Source: Escherichia phage vB-EcoP-XT32
DNA length: 64,000 nt
Reading direction: 5' to 3' (one strand)
Sequence record: OR757435
Below are positions 6,925-57,447 of this stretch, piece after piece. Numbering within the stretch: the stretch's first letter is position 1; each line of letters starts with the position of its first letter. The position numbers and the translations under genes were made by a program. The notes below the pieces were generated by a model. That model made no database searches. It was not told where the DNA came from and was given only the letters and a program-made list of their open reading frames with translations.

Positions 6925-7558
6925 TTAAAGAGCGGTAAATCTGTCAGCGTGCTTTCTCACGCTACGCAACTGTAAGCCGTTGTTTCGCTTTTCACTGAAG
7001 CGGTGATTTGCCTAGTGAGTACGCTCATTATGGACCATGATGTTTTTGCTGTCAACCGCTTTTTTAATCTTTTTCGTCGTTCCCGCTATTGGGAGGATAT
7101 ATCAACCAGCTTTATTTGATTGAAGATTAAGCGATAAGGCTTAAACTTATGATCCATATTGTTAAAGAGCGTTTTTAGCCTTTTATAGTGTCTGCTAATC
7201 ACTGCATCATTAAAGGCTTACTTATTCATTAACGGGGCGCCTACTCCCGAACTACTCGCTGCACTATGTGCCACCTTTCCCGCGATACGTTGACTTGGGA
7301 ACTAGTTAACGTTGTTTTGTTAACTTGTGGTTAGTATGAACTACCTTAACCACGTTTGCAACCTCTTTTTTATCATCTTCTTTTATTCTTTTCCCTTATC
7401 TCGCTTGAATCTATGCGAAAGGGCAAGATGATAAGTTTTTAAAGAGCGGGGATGTTTCACGTCATCGCTGACTTATGCTCATTATAGGTTAGGCTTTCCA
7501 GTTGTCAAATACTTTTTCAAGTATTTTTTCACTTTCTAGCCTGATTTTTAAAGAGCGG
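6925..7558. repeat. four dispersed copies of TTAAAGAGCG(G) in an ORF-free region
   Basis: Copies at 6925, 7162, 7439 and 7548; two share the longer TTTTTAAAGAGCGGGG. Confidence 0.5.
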
Positions 7559-7844
7559 GGCAATTTCTTGCCTTGTATGTTTTTCATCGTACCCGATGAA
7601 TTGAAGTATACGCCAACCAGTGAGTAATGCAATAGGGCAAAGCAAATTATTTTAAACTTTTTCGTAGAGGAGTAGGTAAAGGAACGCGCACGCGAATAAC
7701 ATACTAAAACAGGCTTGTAAAGCACTATTTGACGCTCTCAGACGCATCACAATGAGCTAAAGGAGGGTAAGGAATACAATCACCTTAGAAATGAGAAAAG
7801 CCTCACTAGGAGGCTTATAGGAAGGATTTAGAGCATCAGATAGA

Positions 7845-8168
7845 CTATCGGCACATACCGGAAAGCACAGGATTACCATTAAGATTAGATTCCGCATCTC
7901 GATAATAGATAATGGCAACCGTTTTCCCATCTTCCGTAGGAACAACCCGAAGAATTGAACCATCTTTCCGGTTATCATAGATTACAGCCTTTAAGCCATT
8001 TTCTAAAGTGATAACCTCAGTAGCGGACCAAGTCTTACCTAAAGCGGTGAGATTTTTAGCACCATTAGAGGCTGTGACCACTCCAATGCTTCCGCATTTC
8101 ATGTATGCGCTAGCACTACCAGCAAACAAAGACAAACCAACAGCCAAGCCAACGATTAACTTCTTCAT
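7845..8168 (-). CDS. exported protein (signal peptide)
   Basis: MKKLIVGLAVGLSLFAGSASA N-terminus; AGGAG RBS. Confidence 0.5.
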   Translation of the reverse strand: MKKLIVGLAVGLSLFAGSASAYMKCGSIGVVTASNGAKNLTALGKTWSATEVITLENGLKAVIYDNRKDGSILRVVPTEDGKTVAIIYYRDAESNLNGNPVLSGMCR

Positions 8169-8247
8169 TTTTAAACTCCTAACATTATGACAGCATAGAA
8201 AAGGCCCATTGCACCGACAATGGTCAAAAAGAACAGGCCCACAAGGA

Positions 8248-8622
8248 TTAAGGATTTACACACTGACCGTTACCGGATTCTACTTCATTCATAGACTCGT
8301 CAAAGAGCGTCAACGACGAGCGCATCAAGTGATCGACCGTGATTTGTTTGCCAGTGGTTTCATTCACTAGCTGAATAGTCTTAGCGTATGATTGTACATG
8401 CTCGAAATCATTTACATGTAAAATAATAACCTTAGGTGACTTTTTACCAGTCGAATAGTTTTCTACAAGGTAGGTACATTGCAAGCCGTCAACCGTAGCA
8501 GGGGAAAATGTTGCAGCCTTAACGCTACCCATAGCTGATAGCAGGACACCCAACAGAAGAACAACCAGAAAAAAGCCTACAACCGTTTTAACGACGAATT
8601 TAATAAACCACATAGTAATCAA
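8248..8622 (-). CDS. membrane-anchored protein
   Basis: N-terminal hydrophobic segment VVGFFLVVLLLGVLLSAMG followed by a soluble domain. Confidence 0.45.
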   Translation of the reverse strand: MITMWFIKFVVKTVVGFFLVVLLLGVLLSAMGSVKAATFSPATVDGLQCTYLVENYSTGKKSPKVIILHVNDFEHVQSYAKTIQLVNETTGKQITVDHLMRSSLTLFDESMNEVESGNGQCVNP

Positions 8623-8802
8623 CCTTCAATAATAAGTTTAAGAATATCGAAAGCGGCAACAATCAATAAATAGTTTAAAGAAATGAAGCCAACGACAAAC
8701 AAAAACAGAAATAACACAACCGGACCTCAAAGGATGTAAGAATAAAGCATATCAGCGACGAATGACGCCACTGTAACAACGAATAAGCACCGCCAAAAAT
8801 AG

Positions 8803-9075
8803 TCATGAATCATCACTGTTACCCTCACCAAAAACTGCTACGCTAAGTAGTTCGATCTCTTCCAGAGAAAGGAGAATCCCACGTTGCGCCAGATACTGAC
8901 CTGCTATAACGTCATCCATGATTAGAGCAACGGCAGGAAATTCAACCGCATTAGTCTTATCGCCACTAGTAAACAGGATTAAACACATGTCAGAGTTATC
9001 AGTGTATGAGAAATCAATCTCACCATAGTTATGAGTCGGGATGGTAAAGCTGTACTCTTTAGCCATTAAGACCAC
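8803..9075 (-). CDS. hypothetical protein
   Basis: 90-aa ORF in the co-directional gene array. Confidence 0.4.
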   Translation of the reverse strand: MVLMAKEYSFTIPTHNYGEIDFSYTDNSDMCLILFTSGDKTNAVEFPAVALIMDDVIAGQYLAQRGILLSLEEIELLSVAVFGEGNSDDS

Positions 9076-9275
9076 TCCTTATTGTATTTGAGCATAGATA
9101 CATATTCAGGGCCGGATAAAGTGCCGCCTAAATAAGCAACCGTAATTCGTGCGCTAAATTCCGAAAGGTTGCACAATATGGCAAGCGGTACACGACTTTC
9201 ACCGCGACTACTTGCAACTGACACAACATTATCAAAGATAGTTACGCTATCATTAACAACAACGCCATTGACCAT
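9066..9275 (-). CDS. hypothetical protein
   Basis: 69-aa ORF, short overlap with neighbour. Confidence 0.35.
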   Translation of the reverse strand: MVNGVVVNDSVTIFDNVVSVASSRGESRVPLAILCNLSEFSARITVAYLGGTLSGPEYVSMLKYNKEWS

Positions 9276-9286
9276 GAATCAATCCC

Positions 9287-9538
9287 TCACCATTTAGGCA
9301 AATCAATCTCAAGAAGACCAGAAAGCGACAAATCACCGTCAACATAGATTGATCGGAAGTCATCGCGATTAATATCAATGCGCACCAATTGAAGCCATTT
9401 TTTGGCCTCGTTAAAACTCATGGAACAAAAAGCAACGGCAGGGATTATCACATCATCTTCTTTCAAGCTGAACGCAATAAAAGTATCACAAACAAAACAA
9501 GAAAACCCGCTAGATAATTTAACTTCTTTGATAGCCAT
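9287..9538 (-). CDS. hypothetical protein
   Basis: 83-aa ORF. Confidence 0.4.
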   Translation of the reverse strand: MAIKEVKLSSGFSCFVCDTFIAFSLKEDDVIIPAVAFCSMSFNEAKKWLQLVRIDINRDDFRSIYVDGDLSLSGLLEIDLPKW

Positions 9539-9564
9539 GTTTTACACTCCCAAGAATAGGTTAT

Positions 9565-10056
9565 TTATTTACTGGCCTTGATGCAGTTGGCTAGATTAAC
9601 GTGAACAGTGTAAACAGCATTATCAGCGTTATTGTAAACAGTGGTAGCAATCATCGACTCATTGACCGGACCGTAGCTCACAAGATTGGTAACAGCTTTA
9701 ACGTCTTCATAACGTTGTACAGTGCCGAACGTCACCATATCCGCATCATTATCAGCACGCTTGAGTACCAGATCACTGTTAGGCTGACCGTCCAACGTCT
9801 TAGATTGAAAGAGAACGCCTTCATTTGTTACGTTACTAAATTTCATCTTTAACGCGATGGTATTGCCGTCACTATCCGCACCGTTGCAAATCATCCAACC
9901 TTTATTAATGGAACTAGCGAAAACATCAGCGGCATTAGTTGCAGGAGCTGGACTAGCGATAGCCTTATCAGAAAGAGATGTTACCAGTGCACTAACACCG
10001 ATCGCGGCAACCAGTACATAGCTTGCCAGATTAACTACCTGCATTACCTTAGCCAT
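9565..10056 (-). CDS. exported protein (signal peptide), first gene of the leftward block
   Basis: ATG with GAGGA RBS; hydrophobic N-terminus LASYVLVAAIGVSALVTS. Confidence 0.5.
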   Translation of the reverse strand: MAKVMQVVNLASYVLVAAIGVSALVTSLSDKAIASPAPATNAADVFASSINKGWMICNGADSDGNTIALKMKFSNVTNEGVLFQSKTLDGQPNSDLVLKRADNDADMVTFGTVQRYEDVKAVTNLVSYGPVNESMIATTVYNNADNAVYTVHVNLANCIKASK

Positions 10057-10360
10057 TTGTGAATCCTCATTGATGTGTATTTGGTTTCATGTTTCACAAG
10101 ATAGCACGTATTTCTCTTTTATACGTAGGGCCATTGCTCAGTTGGCCTCTTCACTGACTCGATAGTGTTCCAGCTTTCACCAGTCAATCGCAGAGTCCTT
10201 ATCTTTAAACATTCTCCACTACTTAGGACGATTATCCTTCATGGAGCTTACTACCATCTAGCTACTTTGCATCACTGCTTCGCTTCGATGAATACAATTT
10301 ACTACTTCTTAATAAAGAAAGCAAGTCCTACGGGTAAAATATTTCTACTATCTCTATAGG

Positions 10361-10845
10361 ACGGGGAACATACAACCGCAGGACAGACCACGGGGGAACA
10401 TTGCCAGATAGTGCGGTAATAATATACCACTTAAATAATTGTATAACTCAAACATCAAACGTTAAAAGAAAAAGACCAACAGAACGCTGAAAAAGGAAAG
10501 GAATAAACATCAATAAAAACAATCATTCTTAAAAGAATTATTAAAAGAAATATAATCATCCACTTAATTAATACATACATCATTATTGCACTCATAATAA
10601 CAACTATTGAAACTATTTACATTCAAACTATGGGGGAAGTGGGTAGTACAACACTGACGTTGTTGGTAACTAGGGGGTATTATATCGCCTATTCATAGTG
10701 CCTTAATCTAATCATTATCAGACCTATATCAGTGACTAGCCTTTCATCCATTCAGTAAAGGGGAACTAAATAAACGGGTAGGTAATGTATTGGGTAGTAT
10801 ACACGGGGGAATAATTACGGGGAGTAGGCACGGGGAAAGGTTGGA
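10361..10845. repeat. cluster of short G-rich direct repeats ACGGGG(G)AA / GGGTAG flanking an A-rich tract
   Basis: acggggaacat (10361), acgggggaacatt (10391), tgggggaag (10630), aggggaac (10760), acgggggaa (10803), acggggag (10818), acggggaaag (10831); extreme A-richness at 10400-10620. Confidence 0.45.
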
Positions 10846-10990
10846 ACGTGGAAGAAGGTGTAAAGGCATTGCCAATAACCATTTTTTATTTGAGGACTCC
10901 CCCTTTTTAACAATTCGCCGCAGAGGGCCTAGCCCCACTCGGTCAAATCAGAATTTTGAACTGTTATATATAAGCTTAAGAGAGAACTTA

Positions 10991-11152
10991 ATGAATCTAA
11001 TTAAAGTATTTAGACGGATGAAGTGTAAGCACAATTACTACCTTCTTCGTAAAGCTTACGGGGATGAAAGAATACACGGTCTCTACCTATCAACATGGAA
11101 GTGTAAGGAATGTGGTAAGTTGAGATTCAGTACGTGGGTGGATAGGTCTTAA
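10991..11152 (+). CDS. hypothetical zinc-ribbon-like small protein (53 aa)
   Basis: ATG at 10991 with AAGAGAG upstream; C-K-H ... C-K-E-C motif; upstream part of track ORF 10790..11152 overlaps the repeat region and is probably non-coding. Confidence 0.3.
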   Translation: MNLIKVFRRMKCKHNYYLLRKAYGDERIHGLYLSTWKCKECGKLRFSTWVDRS

Positions 11153-11223
11153 TGGAAATAATCTTTTGGTTAGTAATAGTCTTCTGTTTATTCATCTGCT
11201 TCTCTATAGCAAGATGTATCAAG

Positions 11224-11360
11224 TATGACTAATGACATGGCCTTAACATGAGGGTGCCTTTATGACATGCCCTTTACTTCAGAGTACACGGGTTGTTAGT
11301 ATGAGGTAGTCATCTTTGATGACGTGGCCTTTACGGGTTAGATATGACTAGCCCTTTATA
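11224..11360. repeat. iteron-like array: 4-5 direct copies of ATGAC-NN-G(G/C)CCTTTA(C/T)
   Basis: atgacatggccttaac (11232), ggtgcctttatgac (11254), atgacatgccctttac (11263), atgacgtggcctttac (11319), atgactagccctttat (11344); ends 24 nt before the first rightward gene. Confidence 0.55.
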
Positions 11361-11383
11361 CTCTTATTCAGAGGAGAAGAGTT

Positions 11384-11638
11384 ATGAATTTAGTATTAGA
11401 CTTTTTATCAGAGATAGTGCCTCGGTTCAGAACGGAGACATACGCTTTCGTAGTCAATAGTGACTCTGAAGATGGGATGGAAGCTACATGCTTAGGTCGT
11501 CTTGTTGACCTAGATGATGAAACAGATTTCGATATTACCATTGATGTGAGTAGCTTAGGTTGGCTCTTCTTTAGAGCATTCTGCACTTACAAAGTAGAAA
11601 CGTATAAAGATTACAGCAAGGGAGAGACAGATGAATAA
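11384..11638 (+). CDS. hypothetical acidic protein
   Basis: 84-aa ORF with GAGGAGAAG RBS; first gene of the rightward block. Confidence 0.5.
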   Translation: MNLVLDFLSEIVPRFRTETYAFVVNSDSEDGMEATCLGRLVDLDDETDFDITIDVSSLGWLFFRAFCTYKVETYKDYSKGETDE

Positions 11639-12263
11639 TCAAATAATCGCACGTAACATGGAAGGTATTTATGGAGGTAGTTTCCCTTCTGGCTCTCCTT
11701 TCCACACCCAAGCGATGGACCTTAACGAGTATAATTCACAGCTATGTCGCTCTGGTTGTAGCTTACAACATTTAGAAACTATGGGAAACATCTCAGGACT
11801 GGCTGTACAAGATTTGTATAGTGGAAGTATTCTTAAACCAAATATTACGGAGAACAAAAACATGTTAGATTTGATTCATACTACTCGCCCTAACTCTAAA
11901 ACTAAAACACAACCATCTACTCTGGAAGTAGTTGAATATGAATCTACTAAACATGATCACCTTCCTGACTATGCTCGTGCAATGATTGAGATGATTGAAG
12001 AAGCTGAATATGAAATGCTCCATGATTACATTACCTCTAAAGATGAATGGCATCGTGATGTTCGAATCGAAGAAGATGGTACAGAAACAATTACGTGGAT
12101 TCACAAGAGTGAGTTAGTAGACGACGCACTGCGAGACTACGAAAAATTTTTGGTCGACGGCTCTATTCTTTTAGAGGAAGAGAAGGGTGTAGAACTTCCG
12201 TGGGAGGGTGAGATAGTTACTTTAGGTAAGATGTTTAACCTGTCCGTTGGTGATTGTAAGTAA
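11631..12263 (+). CDS. hypothetical protein
   Basis: 210-aa ORF, GGGAGAG RBS, 8-nt overlap with upstream gene. Confidence 0.5.
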   Translation: MNNQIIARNMEGIYGGSFPSGSPFHTQAMDLNEYNSQLCRSGCSLQHLETMGNISGLAVQDLYSGSILKPNITENKNMLDLIHTTRPNSKTKTQPSTLEVVEYESTKHDHLPDYARAMIEMIEEAEYEMLHDYITSKDEWHRDVRIEEDGTETITWIHKSELVDDALRDYEKFLVDGSILLEEEKGVELPWEGEIVTLGKMFNLSVGDCK

Positions 12264-12319: not shown

Positions 12320-12793
12320 ATGTTTGGAGAAAACGGAGAACTCACACCTGCACAGGTAGCTGAGATTACAGGAAGATTACCCGGAGTAACGGAAGAACTT
12401 GAAGGCCGTGGTATGAACCCAAGCAATGGGAAGTTTCAAAAGGGAAATAAATTCGGACGACCCAGAGGTAGTAGAGGTAAACTGACACAATTAATGTTGG
12501 ACCGTGTTGCTGCAAGTCATTTGTCTCCTGATGAAGTGTTAATTCAAATTTACGAAGATCCTAATATTCCACCTGATCTTAGATTCAAGGCTGCATCAAA
12601 AGTTGCAGATCTGGTATATCCTAAGGCGGCCTCTGTTGAAGTTAAGATTGAGGAAGAGAATGTAATTAACGAAGAATCATTGAATGCACAAATCAAGGAC
12701 TTCTTGACTGGAGCACTTGGTATCGACGTTATGCCTCCAGAAGAAGACAACTCTGAGGACGCTGAAAAGGGGGAGGAAGCGGACGAGAGTTAA
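12320..12793 (+). CDS. putative terminase small subunit / DNA-binding protein
   Basis: Immediately upstream of the large terminase; Gly/Lys-rich GKFQKGNKFGRPRGSRGK motif; acidic C-terminus; assignment is positional. Confidence 0.4.
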   Translation: MFGENGELTPAQVAEITGRLPGVTEELEGRGMNPSNGKFQKGNKFGRPRGSRGKLTQLMLDRVAASHLSPDEVLIQIYEDPNIPPDLRFKAASKVADLVYPKAASVEVKIEEENVINEESLNAQIKDFLTGALGIDVMPPEEDNSEDAEKGEEADES

Positions 12794-12954: not shown

Positions 12955-14496
12955 ATGTCATTAGATAAACAAATTTATGAAGCTCTAACTGGTAACAACC
13001 TTAGTGTAGACGAAAAGAAAGCACTATTGAATATGTTGAAAGAGCGTGACCAATGGAGGAAGTATAATAAGATTTTGTCTTTCAAGGCGTATGACTTCCA
13101 AAAGAAATTTTATGCAGCAGGATTGAAGCATCGCTTTAGATTCTTGTGTGCAGCGAACCGTGTTGGTAAATCTTATAGCGAGGCATACGAGTTTGCTTGT
13201 CATGTCACAGGTCGCTACCCAACTTGGTGGACAGGATATAAATTTAAAAGACCTATCTTAGCATGGGCAGTTGGTATTACAGGGGATTCCACAAGGAAAG
13301 TATTGCAAAAGGAATTGTTTGGTACACCTATCGGAAAGGATACAAATTTATTAGGGACAGGTGTCATTCCTCGTGATGCTATCGTCATTGATACGATAGA
13401 ACGAGATGGTAACAAACTTCAAATCGTACAAATCAAACATCAAAATGAGAGAGGAGAGTTTGACGGTTTAAGTACATTAGAATTCCGTTCAACCCAACAG
13501 GGTGAACACACATTGATGGGTGCAACAGTTGACTACATTTGGTTAGACGAAGAAGATCCATACGAGTCTATGGCTATATTCGCACAGTGCGTCACACGTA
13601 CACTCACAACTAAAGGTCTAGTTACAATTACAGCTACACCAGAGAACGGTTTAACTGAACTGGTAGATAAATTTATGAAAGGTGAAGGAGATGAGAACAC
13701 AGGTTCTCTGTATTTCCAGAATGCTTCTTGGTGGGATGCTCATGCAGACCTAGGTGGACACATCACTGACCAAGATATAAAAGATATGACTGAAGGTATT
13801 CCAGCGTGGCAGTTAGAGATGCGTTCAAAAGGTATGCCATTGTTAGGAAGTGGTTTGATATATGATGTATCGGATGACACAATTAAATGTGAACCATTCG
13901 AAATTCCTGATACGTGGAAACGTGTCTGTGCAATTGATATTGGTATTGATCACCCAACTGCTGCTGTTTGGACAGCTTACGATGCAAACACGGATACTAT
14001 CTATGTTTACGACTCATATAAAGAAGGTGGCTTTACTCCAGTGTATCATGCTCCAGCTATTAATGGTCGTGGTCAGTGGATTCCTGTCATCCTACCGCAT
14101 GATGCGGACAATACTGAGAAAGGTAGTGGCTCATCTGTTGCTCAATTCTATAAGAATGCAGGAGTTAACGTACAGAGTGAGACCTTCTACAACAAAATTG
14201 GAATGGATGGTAAAAAGAACTTCTTTGTAGAACCGGGAATCACAGATATCCGAGAAAGAATGATGAGTGGACGCTTTAAAGTCTTTAACACAGCCGCTAA
14301 CGCTAAGCTATTCGAAGAGAAAGCTAGATATCACCGTAAGGTTGGTAAGATTATTAAAGAACATGATGACTTAATGGATGCAATGCGCTATTCAGCGTGC
14401 TCTGTTACACATCGTGGTCGCTCTAAGCATGATGTTAGCTACGGAAGCGCTTCTTTGTATGAGGCAAACGTAAGCAGATGGAATCAGAGCTACTAA
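12955..14496 (+). CDS. terminase large subunit
   Basis: 513 aa; Walker-A-like CAANRVGKS near N-terminus, acidic nuclease-like region (DIGIDHPTA ... HDAD); GGAGGAAG RBS. Confidence 0.8.
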   Translation: MSLDKQIYEALTGNNLSVDEKKALLNMLKERDQWRKYNKILSFKAYDFQKKFYAAGLKHRFRFLCAANRVGKSYSEAYEFACHVTGRYPTWWTGYKFKRPILAWAVGITGDSTRKVLQKELFGTPIGKDTNLLGTGVIPRDAIVIDTIERDGNKLQIVQIKHQNERGEFDGLSTLEFRSTQQGEHTLMGATVDYIWLDEEDPYESMAIFAQCVTRTLTTKGLVTITATPENGLTELVDKFMKGEGDENTGSLYFQNASWWDAHADLGGHITDQDIKDMTEGIPAWQLEMRSKGMPLLGSGLIYDVSDDTIKCEPFEIPDTWKRVCAIDIGIDHPTAAVWTAYDANTDTIYVYDSYKEGGFTPVYHAPAINGRGQWIPVILPHDADNTEKGSGSSVAQFYKNAGVNVQSETFYNKIGMDGKKNFFVEPGITDIRERMMSGRFKVFNTAANAKLFEEKARYHRKVGKIIKEHDDLMDAMRYSACSVTHRGRSKHDVSYGSASLYEANVSRWNQSY

Positions 14497-56952: not shown

Positions 56953-57447
56953 NNNNNNNNNNNNNNNNNNNNNNNNNNNNNNNNNNNNNNNNNNNNNNNN
57001 NNNNNNNNNNNNNNNNNNNNNNNNNNNNNNNNNNNNNNNNNNNNNNNNNNNNNNNNNNNNNNNNNNNNNNNNNNNNNNNNNNNNNNNNNNNNNNNNNNNN
57101 NNNNNNNNNNNNNNNNNNNNNNNNNNNNNNNNNNNNNNNNNNNNNNNNNNNNNNNNNNNNNNNNNNNNNNNNNNNNNNNNNNNNNNNNNNNNNNNNNNNN
57201 NNNNNNNNNNNNNNNNNNNNNNNNNNNNNNNNNNNNNNNNNNNNNNNNNNNNNNNNNNNNNNNNNNNNNNNNNNNNNNNNNNNNNNNNNNNNNNNNNNNN
57301 NNNNNNNNNNNNNNNNNNNNNNNNNNNNNNNNNNNNNNNNNNNNNNNNNNNNNNNNNNNNNNNNNNNNNNNNNNNNNNNNNNNNNNNNNNNNNNNNNNNN
57401 NNNNNNNNNNNNNNNNNNNNNNNNNNNNNNNNNNNNNNNNNNNNNNN
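56953..57447. other. assembly gap (495 N)
   Basis: Continuous run of n characters. Confidence 1.

Follow-up and report, generated by a model that had tools for sequence, protein, structure and literature searches.

A putative genome terminus with an oriented array of short G-rich motifs in the divergent region of the phiEco32-like phage vB-EcoP-XT32

The stretch of DNA analysed here in its entirety, hereafter the window, comprises 64,000 nucleotides of Escherichia phage vB-EcoP-XT32 (sequence record OR757435). The region of interest finds its best matches among the Kuravirus phages, the phiEco32-like podophages of the Gordonclarkvirinae, and the gene order across the window is that of phiEco32. 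XT18 and XT73 are the closest matches, with 97-99% identity over the matched parts of 9500-11700; over 10300-10960 the identity to XT18 falls to 84%, which indicates that this junction evolves faster than its flanks. Leftward early genes extend to 10056 and a rightward block begins at 10991, comprising in order a 53-aa gene, an 84-aa gene, a 210-aa gene annotated as 'ABC transporter', a 157-aa protein (12320-12793) and the large terminase (12955-14496), the latter with PF03237/PF17289 matches. The 157-aa protein, whose gene lies 1.4 kb to the right of the junction, has been assigned as the small terminase in the paper on phage YF01 on the basis of HHpred (PMC9965538), and this small terminase is classed as PaP3-like, a nonamer bearing helix-turn-helix (HTH) motifs, nine in all (PMC9965538, PMC7672466); a sequence search of the 157-aa protein against solved structures returned no meaningful match. 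Gene order bears out the original prediction insofar as it placed the stretch at 10361-10850 between two divergent gene blocks, in what is the non-coding hub of the genome.

Comparison with phages of mapped ends gives this hub a more specific identity. The phiEco32 record opens at its mapped left end, and its first 193 bases recur at 77362-77554. The first base of the phiEco32, Paul and YF01 genomes falls in each case on position 10738 of the window when aligned, and the homologous interval (10738-10930, + strand) is exactly 193 bp long; over its full length it shares 165/193 positions with phiEco32, 168/193 with Paul and 165/193 with YF01 (85-87%). The same boundaries were reached independently in Paul, in which the direct terminal repeat (DTR) is annotated at 1-193 (PhageTerm) and the record ends in ...GTGCT, in YF01, whose ends were obtained from full-length nanopore reads in a study tabulating DTRs of 192-193 bp for 30 phages (PMC9965538), and in SU10, whose ends were recognized from sharp read drop-offs and are blunt (PMC4281155). 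As in Kuravirus, the interval has the last leftward early gene on its left, and on its right gene 1 and the genes for both terminase subunits, small and large. With its ends placed by homology, the flagged stretch is therefore almost certainly the genome terminus and DTR of a phiEco32-like phage, and a physical terminus or concatemer junction would be what the original prediction missed. The repeat was found in one copy in the 64-kb window, as in a replicative concatemer or in a circularly permuted (collapsed) assembly.

Both boundaries carry the hexamer CTAGCC, which occurs only 10 times on the + strand of the 64 kb. The left one (10736..10741, + strand) would be cut as CT|AGCC at 10737|10738, following the base-1 alignment of phiEco32, Paul and YF01, and the right one (10929..10934, + strand) in the same manner at 10930|10931, following the alignment of the DTR. 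On the left flank the relatives read ...GTGCT|AGCCTTTC and the window ...GTGACT|AGCCTTTC; on the right flank the relatives read ...GGCT|AGCC(CC)ACTCGGTCAAATCAG and the window ...GGGCCT|AGCCCCACTCGG, the DTRs of phiEco32, Paul and YF01 finishing in ...GCGGCT, followed by AGCC or AGGC. Two further ideas on the boundaries were discarded: the resemblance between TGACTAGCCTTTCAT at the left boundary and the unit TGACTAGCCCTTTAT at 11345 was judged compatible with chance, its pre-cut part not being conserved in relatives, and a symmetric model placing an inverted G-motif about 20 nt inside each boundary was rejected, as the two distances, 22 and 27 nt, are unequal and phages outside Kuravirus lack the left copy.

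Conservation around the terminus was assessed from an alignment of 16 junctions of Kuravirus and Nieuwekanaalvirus, in which identity to the window was measured in 14 relatives. The most conserved part of the DTR is a core at 10863..10909 on the + strand (AAGGCATTGCCAATAACC-T6-A...GAGGACTCCCCCTTTTTA; 90% conserved), which carries the sole C-run, corresponding to one inverted copy of GGGGGAGT on the - strand. The YF01 paper likewise located conserved DTR positions at approximately 130-170 (PMC9965538), and length variation of the T-run has been described in the SU10 paper (PMC4281155). A scan of IMG/VR with this core recovered 7 loci, one of them unrelated. Just outside the DTR, a stretch of 32 nt on the + strand (AGCCCCACTCGGTCAAATCAGAATTTTGAACT, 10931..10962) is 93% conserved, while the spacer to the left of the terminus (10639..10737) is variable, being 39% conserved and rich in indels, and includes a GGGTAG at 10641 and a TAGGGGG at 10673 that are not conserved.

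Gene 1 (10991..11152, + strand) encodes a 53-aa Cys/His zinc-ribbon-like protein with a C-x-H...C-x-x-C pattern, homologous to phi32_1 / NJ01_012 (phrog_7696, E = 3e-16). Its ATG at 10991 and the protein were recovered in 14 of 15 relatives, the divergent copy of SU7 showing no in-frame start in an automated scan. In 9/15 relatives a stop codon interrupts the frame no more than 31 codons upstream of this ATG, and an indel of approximately 26 nt is also found there. These stops reject 10790-10990 as coding sequence, in agreement with the doubt cast at the outset on the open reading frame starting at 10790 (10790..11152), which is only a chance extension of the real 53-aa gene at 10991-11152 and which spans the DTR boundary. 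The coding sequences of XT18 and Paul that start inside the DTR are probably over-extended as well.

The short G-rich elements that had drawn attention to the stretch were recovered where they had been placed, all of them on the + strand. The seven copies resembling ACGGGG(G)AA start at 10361 (ACGGGGAA), 10390 (ACGGGGGAA), 10630 (ATGGGGGAA, reading ATGGGGG), 10758 (AAGGGGAA, reading AAGGGG), 10803 (again ACGGGGGAA), 10817 (ACGGGGAG) and 10830 (ACGGGGAAA), and three GGGTAG repeats are found at 10641, 10776 and 10792; an additional copy, ACGGGTAA, is present at 10330. Nine G-motifs, all + strand, were delimited from the alignment. The first three, in right-end unique DNA, are spaced by 31 and 29 nt: motif 1 (ACGGGTAA, 10330..10337), with a core 87% conserved; motif 2 (ACGGGGAAC, 10361..10369), with a core 96% conserved as against 43% for the spacer at 10336-10360; and motif 3 (CACGGGGGAAC, 10389..10399), which is 91% conserved. 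Motif 4 (TATGGGGGAA, 10629-10638) is situated at the end of a block that is 90-100% conserved. Inside the DTR, motifs 5 and 6 (TAAAGGGGAAC and AACGGGTAG, 10756..10781) are 88% and 94% conserved, and motifs 7, 8 and 9 (CACGGGGGAA, TACGGGGAG and CACGGGGAAA, 10802..10838) are spaced by 14 and 13 nt and conserved at 99%, 87% and 95%, respectively, with 68% for the spacer at 10809-10816. Motifs 1-4 are thus left of 10738 and motifs 5-9 in the left half of the DTR, so that the distances from the left cut, about -108 and +20 to +100, fall on both sides. Relative to the proposed terminus, the left motifs and the A-rich tract beside them would be non-coding DNA of the right genome end, and the right motifs would belong to the repeat itself.

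Clustering and orientation of these elements are strongly biased. All four matches to ACGGGGRA in the 64-kb window are inside the flagged stretch; of 81 + strand runs with at least four G, eight are within 10361-10850, as against none of the 66 C-runs (Poisson 3e-7). For ACGGG on the + strand, seven of 30 copies are within 10330-10850 (0.24 expected), a count matched by 0/20,000 random placements, and further copies extend out to 11333, giving ten within 10330-11340, again reached by 0/20,000 random placements. The array is also kept in the relatives, where lack of repeat conservation had been named as evidence that would speak against a function: G-motif cores are 87-100% conserved in the 14 relatives versus 39-80% for the spacers, those separating the cores from one another giving 43-80%, and each of 18 junctions from three genera carries 7-12 AYGGG on the + strand and 0-2 on the - strand. 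SU7 (Suseptimavirus) retains the array with altered spacing and mostly as AYGGGTAR. The individual GGGTAG at 10792 is polymorphic, reading GGATGG in about half of the relatives. Conservation in relatives implies that the motifs reflect more than chance or composition and, considered together, the clustering, strand bias and core conservation suggest the behaviour of protein sites, not that of coding sequence or RNA structure. In the more distant relatives 7-11 and Privateer, the corresponding region contains arrays of short repeats particular to these phages.

The A-rich tract between the motif groups is equally real. Positions 10400-10620 contain 49% A on the + strand (AT skew +0.33), and 10431-10630, which is flanked by the motif groups, has the lowest GC content of any 200 nt in the whole window (23%). 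The tract is 39-49% conserved in the 14 relatives, with many indels and three conserved islands. The first, block A (TGCGGTAATAATATACCACTTAAATAATT, 10412..10440), is 96% conserved and contains a GGTA..TACC palindrome; on its - strand, TGGTATATT (10429-10421) resembles a leftward extended -10 element, and its TGG-TAWWWT is kept in Kuravirus, Nieuwekanaalvirus and SU7. An A-rich, indel-rich spacer follows (10441..10555, + strand), which is 39-49% conserved, varies in length among relatives, and includes the second island, the invariant ACGCTGAAAAA (10484-10494, + strand, 99% conserved), as well as a 12-nt tandem, ATTATTAAAAGA x2.4 (10525-10553, + strand), the only array found in the A-rich tract by a tandem-repeat scan. 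The third island, block B (TCCACTTAATTAATACATACATCATTATTGCACTCATAAT ... TTGAAACTATTTACATTCAAAC, 10556..10638, + strand), is conserved at 90-100% together with the adjacent ...TTACATTCAAACTATGGGG. Only two occurrences of CCACTTAAWTAAT exist in the 64 kb, at 10427 and 10560.

T7-type packaging has been assumed for this group of phages (PMC4281155, PMC9965538, PMC7881722, PMC10438801), according to a scheme in which each concatemer junction contains the repeat once, the DNA is cut site-specifically at two positions and the repeat becomes duplicated (PMC4281155, PMC9965538, PMC10438801). Within this framework, the explanation that we tentatively prefer is that of a terminus and DTR equipped with a G-motif array for the recognition and processing of the concatemer junction, a reading that appears plausible as a whole while falling somewhat short of probable. 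By analogy with other phages, the G-motifs themselves could, with slightly less assurance, be regarded as packaging or junction-processing signals. The oriented AYGGGKAR motifs, about 8-12 per junction, would be conserved short protein-binding sites of the concatemer junction, through which the small and large terminase would find the junction and orient themselves. The terminase would then cut site-specifically at both CT|AGCC sequences, which are separated by 193 bp, with duplication of the repeat following the T7 model. The A-rich tract, with its three conserved islands, might act as a flexible, easily bent or melted spacer, and it may also hold a weak leftward promoter for the host RNA polymerase (RNAP).

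Several observations bear on this packaging role. In the 14 relatives, several short conserved sites adjoin the terminase cut site, as in a pac- or cosB-like array, and a nonameric HTH small terminase, as the predicted assignment has it, would suit an array of multiple sites. Within Kuravirus the small terminase shows 98-100% identity, and in SU7, where the preferred motif variant differs, it is still 91% identical; the protein is so nearly invariant that comparing it with the motif variants tells little, and no clear co-variation of protein and site emerges. The DTR core at 10863-10909 and the 32 nt beyond the DTR are at least as conserved as the motifs and are equally good candidates for a terminase site. 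Furthermore, G-motifs 1-3 (10330-10399) are 340-400 bp from the nearest cut, and with ACGGG copies up to 11333 a role apart from the cut site is possible.

The systems with which the junction can be compared differ in how closely they resemble it. The DTRs of phiEco32, SU10, Paul and YF01 are homologous, of the same 193 bp, with the same boundaries and in the same genomic place, and nothing essential differs; the internal CC(C)T5-6A repeats described for SU10 are also present in the window. At the junction of T7 and T3, a short exact terminal repeat similarly occurs once per junction and is duplicated during packaging, and the terminal repeat of T7 is reportedly adjoined by arrays of short repeats in the same orientation. 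Packaging specificity in T7/T3 is determined by sequences no more than a few percent away from the ends (PMC3276506). Similarity to T7/T3 in sequence is lacking, however, and part of the array is here inside the repeat; moreover, transcription relies here on the host RNAP and a phage sigma factor instead of a phage RNAP, so that the RNAP-pausing step of T7 cannot be assumed. The cosB R-sites of lambda and the pacL/pacR sites of SPP1 also consist of several short sites at the cut, close to the terminase genes, and arrays of this type are recognized by an oligomeric HTH small terminase (PMC7672466), but lambda has cohesive ends, SPP1 packages by headful, and no IHF site was found here. The LUZ24-like phage tf offers a further parallel, with a 186-bp DTR and the same short, partly palindromic core at both cuts, reminiscent of the CT|AGCC pair; this shared core was proposed to be the core site of the terminase (PMC3517423), and the small terminase of tf belongs to the family assigned to Kuravirus (PMC9965538). 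The core of tf, by contrast, is GATATCcc, and one of its ends has a 4-nt 3' overhang whereas the SU10 ends are reported as blunt.

Alternatively, the junction might be a transcription control region, with a leftward host-RNAP promoter in block A, starting near 10412-10414 from TGGTATATT, a rightward promoter for gp36, the phage sigma factor, in the DTR, starting near 10797-10799 from TAATGTATT, and the G-motifs serving as regulator sites or as leader elements (C-rich in the leftward RNA, G-rich in the rightward RNA). We regard this as unlikely, even if the leftward genes at 7500-10056 and the rightward genes at 10991-12263 need promoters. Consensus sigma-70 early promoters on the - strand, homologous to those of SU10 and phiEco32, are found at 7055 and 7508; the last gene lacks the upstream promoter that it has in phiEco32 and SU10, because in the window this gene is a 163-aa C-terminal version (phrog_36409 129-290). 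This absence and the conservation of TGG-TAWWWT across three genera speak for the transcriptional reading. A position-weight scan nevertheless gave about 130 sites scoring 8 or more in 128 kb, approximately one per kb, and no site in 10040-11000 rose above this background: the top score there is 8.7, the extended -10 candidate of block A reaches 8.6, and the 32 nt after the DTR, considered by the SU10 authors as a possible sigma-70 promoter for gene 1, score 5.1. The clustered early promoters suggested by the original prediction are consequently not borne out. As regards the rightward direction, TAATGTATT (10783..10791, + strand) is a candidate gp36 promoter toward gene 1, matching the consensus tAATGTAtA (PMC4331800, PMC8948821) at 8/9 positions and followed by GGGTAG, much like the homologue of the validated late promoter P26 at 35733, which reads TAATGTATATAGGGGGTAGG. 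Experimental mapping in the relative 7-11 placed early sigma-70 promoters at the right end and one late promoter ahead of gene 1 (PMC8948821). Against this, the site at 10783 reads TAATGAAT in about half of the relatives, and none of the six published gp36 promoters of phiEco32 is upstream of gene 1 (PMC8948821). The mapped early promoter of phiEco32 is to the left of motifs 1-3, which would thus be upstream of it and not transcribed from it, and promoters alone fail to explain 8-12 repeats on the same strand.

A replication origin, the main idea of the original prediction, is in our view rather improbable, somewhat more so than transcriptional control. In this reading the A-rich tract would serve for unwinding, the oriented G-motifs on either side of it would be recognized by an initiator or a primase, and replication of the linear genome would begin near the end entering the cell first. 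What stands of that proposal is the A-rich tract of strong A/T strand asymmetry and lowest GC content in the window, with repeats of one orientation on both sides, to which may be added that block A, ACGCTGAAAAA and block B are conserved islands lacking another explanation. The primary origin of T7, too, combines a promoter with an AT-rich stretch and is found near the leading end, and the searchable literature on the phiEco32-like group maps no origin, and hence holds no contradicting data. The machinery expected of such an origin was however not found: DnaA boxes (TTATNCACA, up to 1 mismatch) are absent from 9000-11363 and a perfect IHF site from the region, no initiator-like family is recognisable among the neighbouring genes, and the repeat unit of 6-9 bp is well below the 17-22 bp of iterons. 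The A-rich tract is itself the least conserved part and rich in indels, the DTR, which is known to function in end formation, contains five of the nine motifs, and the GC-skew switch merely tracks gene orientation. Direct repeats of one orientation beside an AT-rich stretch do recall the origins composed of iterons and an unwinding element, such as lambda ori and plasmid oriV, but here the unit is much shorter, an adjacent initiator gene and DnaA boxes are missing, the AT-rich tract is conserved neither in sequence nor in length, and half of the repeats are in the terminal repeat.

Finally, a G-quadruplex or hairpin formed by the G-runs at the genome end, for end protection, pausing or a T7-like hairpin intermediate, is very improbable despite three or four G-runs within 45 nt (10792-10835) and the complementarity of GGGGAGT (10819-10825) to the ACTCCCC (10896-10902) that precedes the T-run, since no Kuravirus junction has a canonical quadruplex pattern (loops no longer than 7), a long-loop pattern occurs in only 6/16 and is not conserved, shuffled controls fold better than the DTR + strand itself (z = +2.2), the DTR - strand (z = -1.4) and the left cluster (z = -0.5) are not significant, and a search of Rfam yielded no family, its single match being due to chance (E = 0.37).

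Returning to the terminus with its junction-processing array, the DTR and its boundaries have already been published for relatives, and the motif array would be the new part. The paper on SU10 mentions only CCCTTTTTTA repeats (PMC4281155) and that on YF01 only the conserved 130-170 segment (PMC9965538); the oriented ACGGGG/ACGGGT array, the CT|AGCC pair and the right-end islands are not described in the accessible papers on the DTRs of relatives. More speculatively, and with a lower likelihood than the packaging role itself, the AYGGGKAR array might constitute an undescribed cis-acting recognition system of Gordonclarkvirinae ends, of about 8-12 copies over ~1 kb, extending from the right-end leader through the left half of the DTR and on to the repeats that separate gene 1 from the gene after it. 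It could be read by a dedicated phage protein, possibly the small terminase or the adjacent early 53-aa zinc-ribbon protein, which would impose a polarity on both cuts at CT|AGCC and thereby define the 193-bp repeat; in an alternative version of this conjecture, the array would link the recognition of the ends with replication initiation.

Among phages with short exact terminal repeats, T7/T3 are the only ones for which the recognition and duplication of the ends are understood in outline, and for the phiEco32-like phages, which are common coliphages present in therapy collections, only the positions of the ends have been known so far. A conserved, oriented array beside identical CT|AGCC cuts provides concrete, mutable candidates for packaging signals, which would be of use in engineering, for instance for the packaging of synthetic genomes, and in correcting genome orientation and annotation, as many deposited records are permuted and some have a coding sequence running through the repeat. 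Should the array mark an origin or a regulatory hub instead, a function as yet unmapped in this family would thereby be localised.

The junction at which the genome ends meet is a mosaic, in which entire segments of the A-rich tract (10400-10620) and of the spacer preceding the cut have been swapped between lineages. In the comparison with phage XT18, the junction (10300-10960) matches at 84% and is far more divergent than the genes around it, for which the figure is 97.5% in those parts of 9500-11700 that align. Elsewhere in the window, 495 consecutive N (56953-57447) represent masked or unresolved sequence.

Both boundaries of the 193-bp direct terminal repeat (DTR) carry the identical hexamer CTAGCC (10736-10741 and 10929-10934), the cut position lying within its CTAG palindrome, and a third copy occurs at 11348. 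Slight variants of this boundary hexamer, namely TATAGCC, CTGGCC, CCAGCC and CTAGGC, were found in relatives. Within the terminal repeat, the deposited annotations place the start of a coding sequence in XT18 (WPK41856.2, positions 1063-1482 of the compared locus) and in phage Paul (CPT_Paul_001, 104-415); comparison with relatives indicates that both correspond to the 53-aa gene 1, over-extended. The DTR also shares an 18-mer, TGAGGACTCCCCCTTTTT, with an unrelated IMG/VR contig (3300037067_004737, 2340-2455 of the compared locus), where a terminator-like hairpin (GGGGAGTCCTCA...) uses it as its 3' arm; in the phage DTR the 18-mer has no 5' arm nearby.

Upstream of the cut, the conserved block A contains a palindrome, GGTAATAATATACC (10415-10428), whose SU7 counterpart is perfect (GGTAAT-AA-ATTACC, locus L019 866-879), which suggests a putative site for a dimeric DNA-binding protein overlapping the extended -10-like element. 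Near-consensus sigma-70 promoters were identified on the minus strand at 7055 (TTGACA-N17-CATAAT), 7508 (TTGACA-N16-TATAAT) and 50735 (TTGACA-N17-TATAAT), the first two matching early promoters that SU10 and phiEco32 carry between CDS120 and CDS121. The early promoter ttgacagcc...tatagt of phiEco32 and SU10 is missing from 10057-10330, the stretch upstream of the last leftward gene. The product of this gene (9565-10056, minus strand) is limited to the C-terminal part, 163 aa, of the phi32_128 family, whose members are 290 aa long (phrog_36409 129-290).

Short repeats also occur in distant relatives and to the right of gene 1. The distantly related Salmonella phage 7-11 bears an array analogous to that of the window: upstream of its gene 1, four same-strand copies of YGTRTGGATAR (907-990 of the compared locus) adjoin TGATGTTATA repeats. 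In the window, the interval separating gene 1 from its right-hand neighbour holds five ATGAC(A)TG(G)CCTTTA units on one strand (11232-11359), several of them followed by YGGGK. The same repeat family is present in phiEco32 (locus L002 420-680) and SU7 (locus L018 505-625), and the equivalent region of Proteus phage Privateer (locus L030 1347-1763) holds five copies of ATATGACMTSSCATCAA and three of TTTATCAGAG. The ATGAC(A)TG(G)CCTTTA repeats may be part of the same end-recognition or promoter system as the junction motifs.
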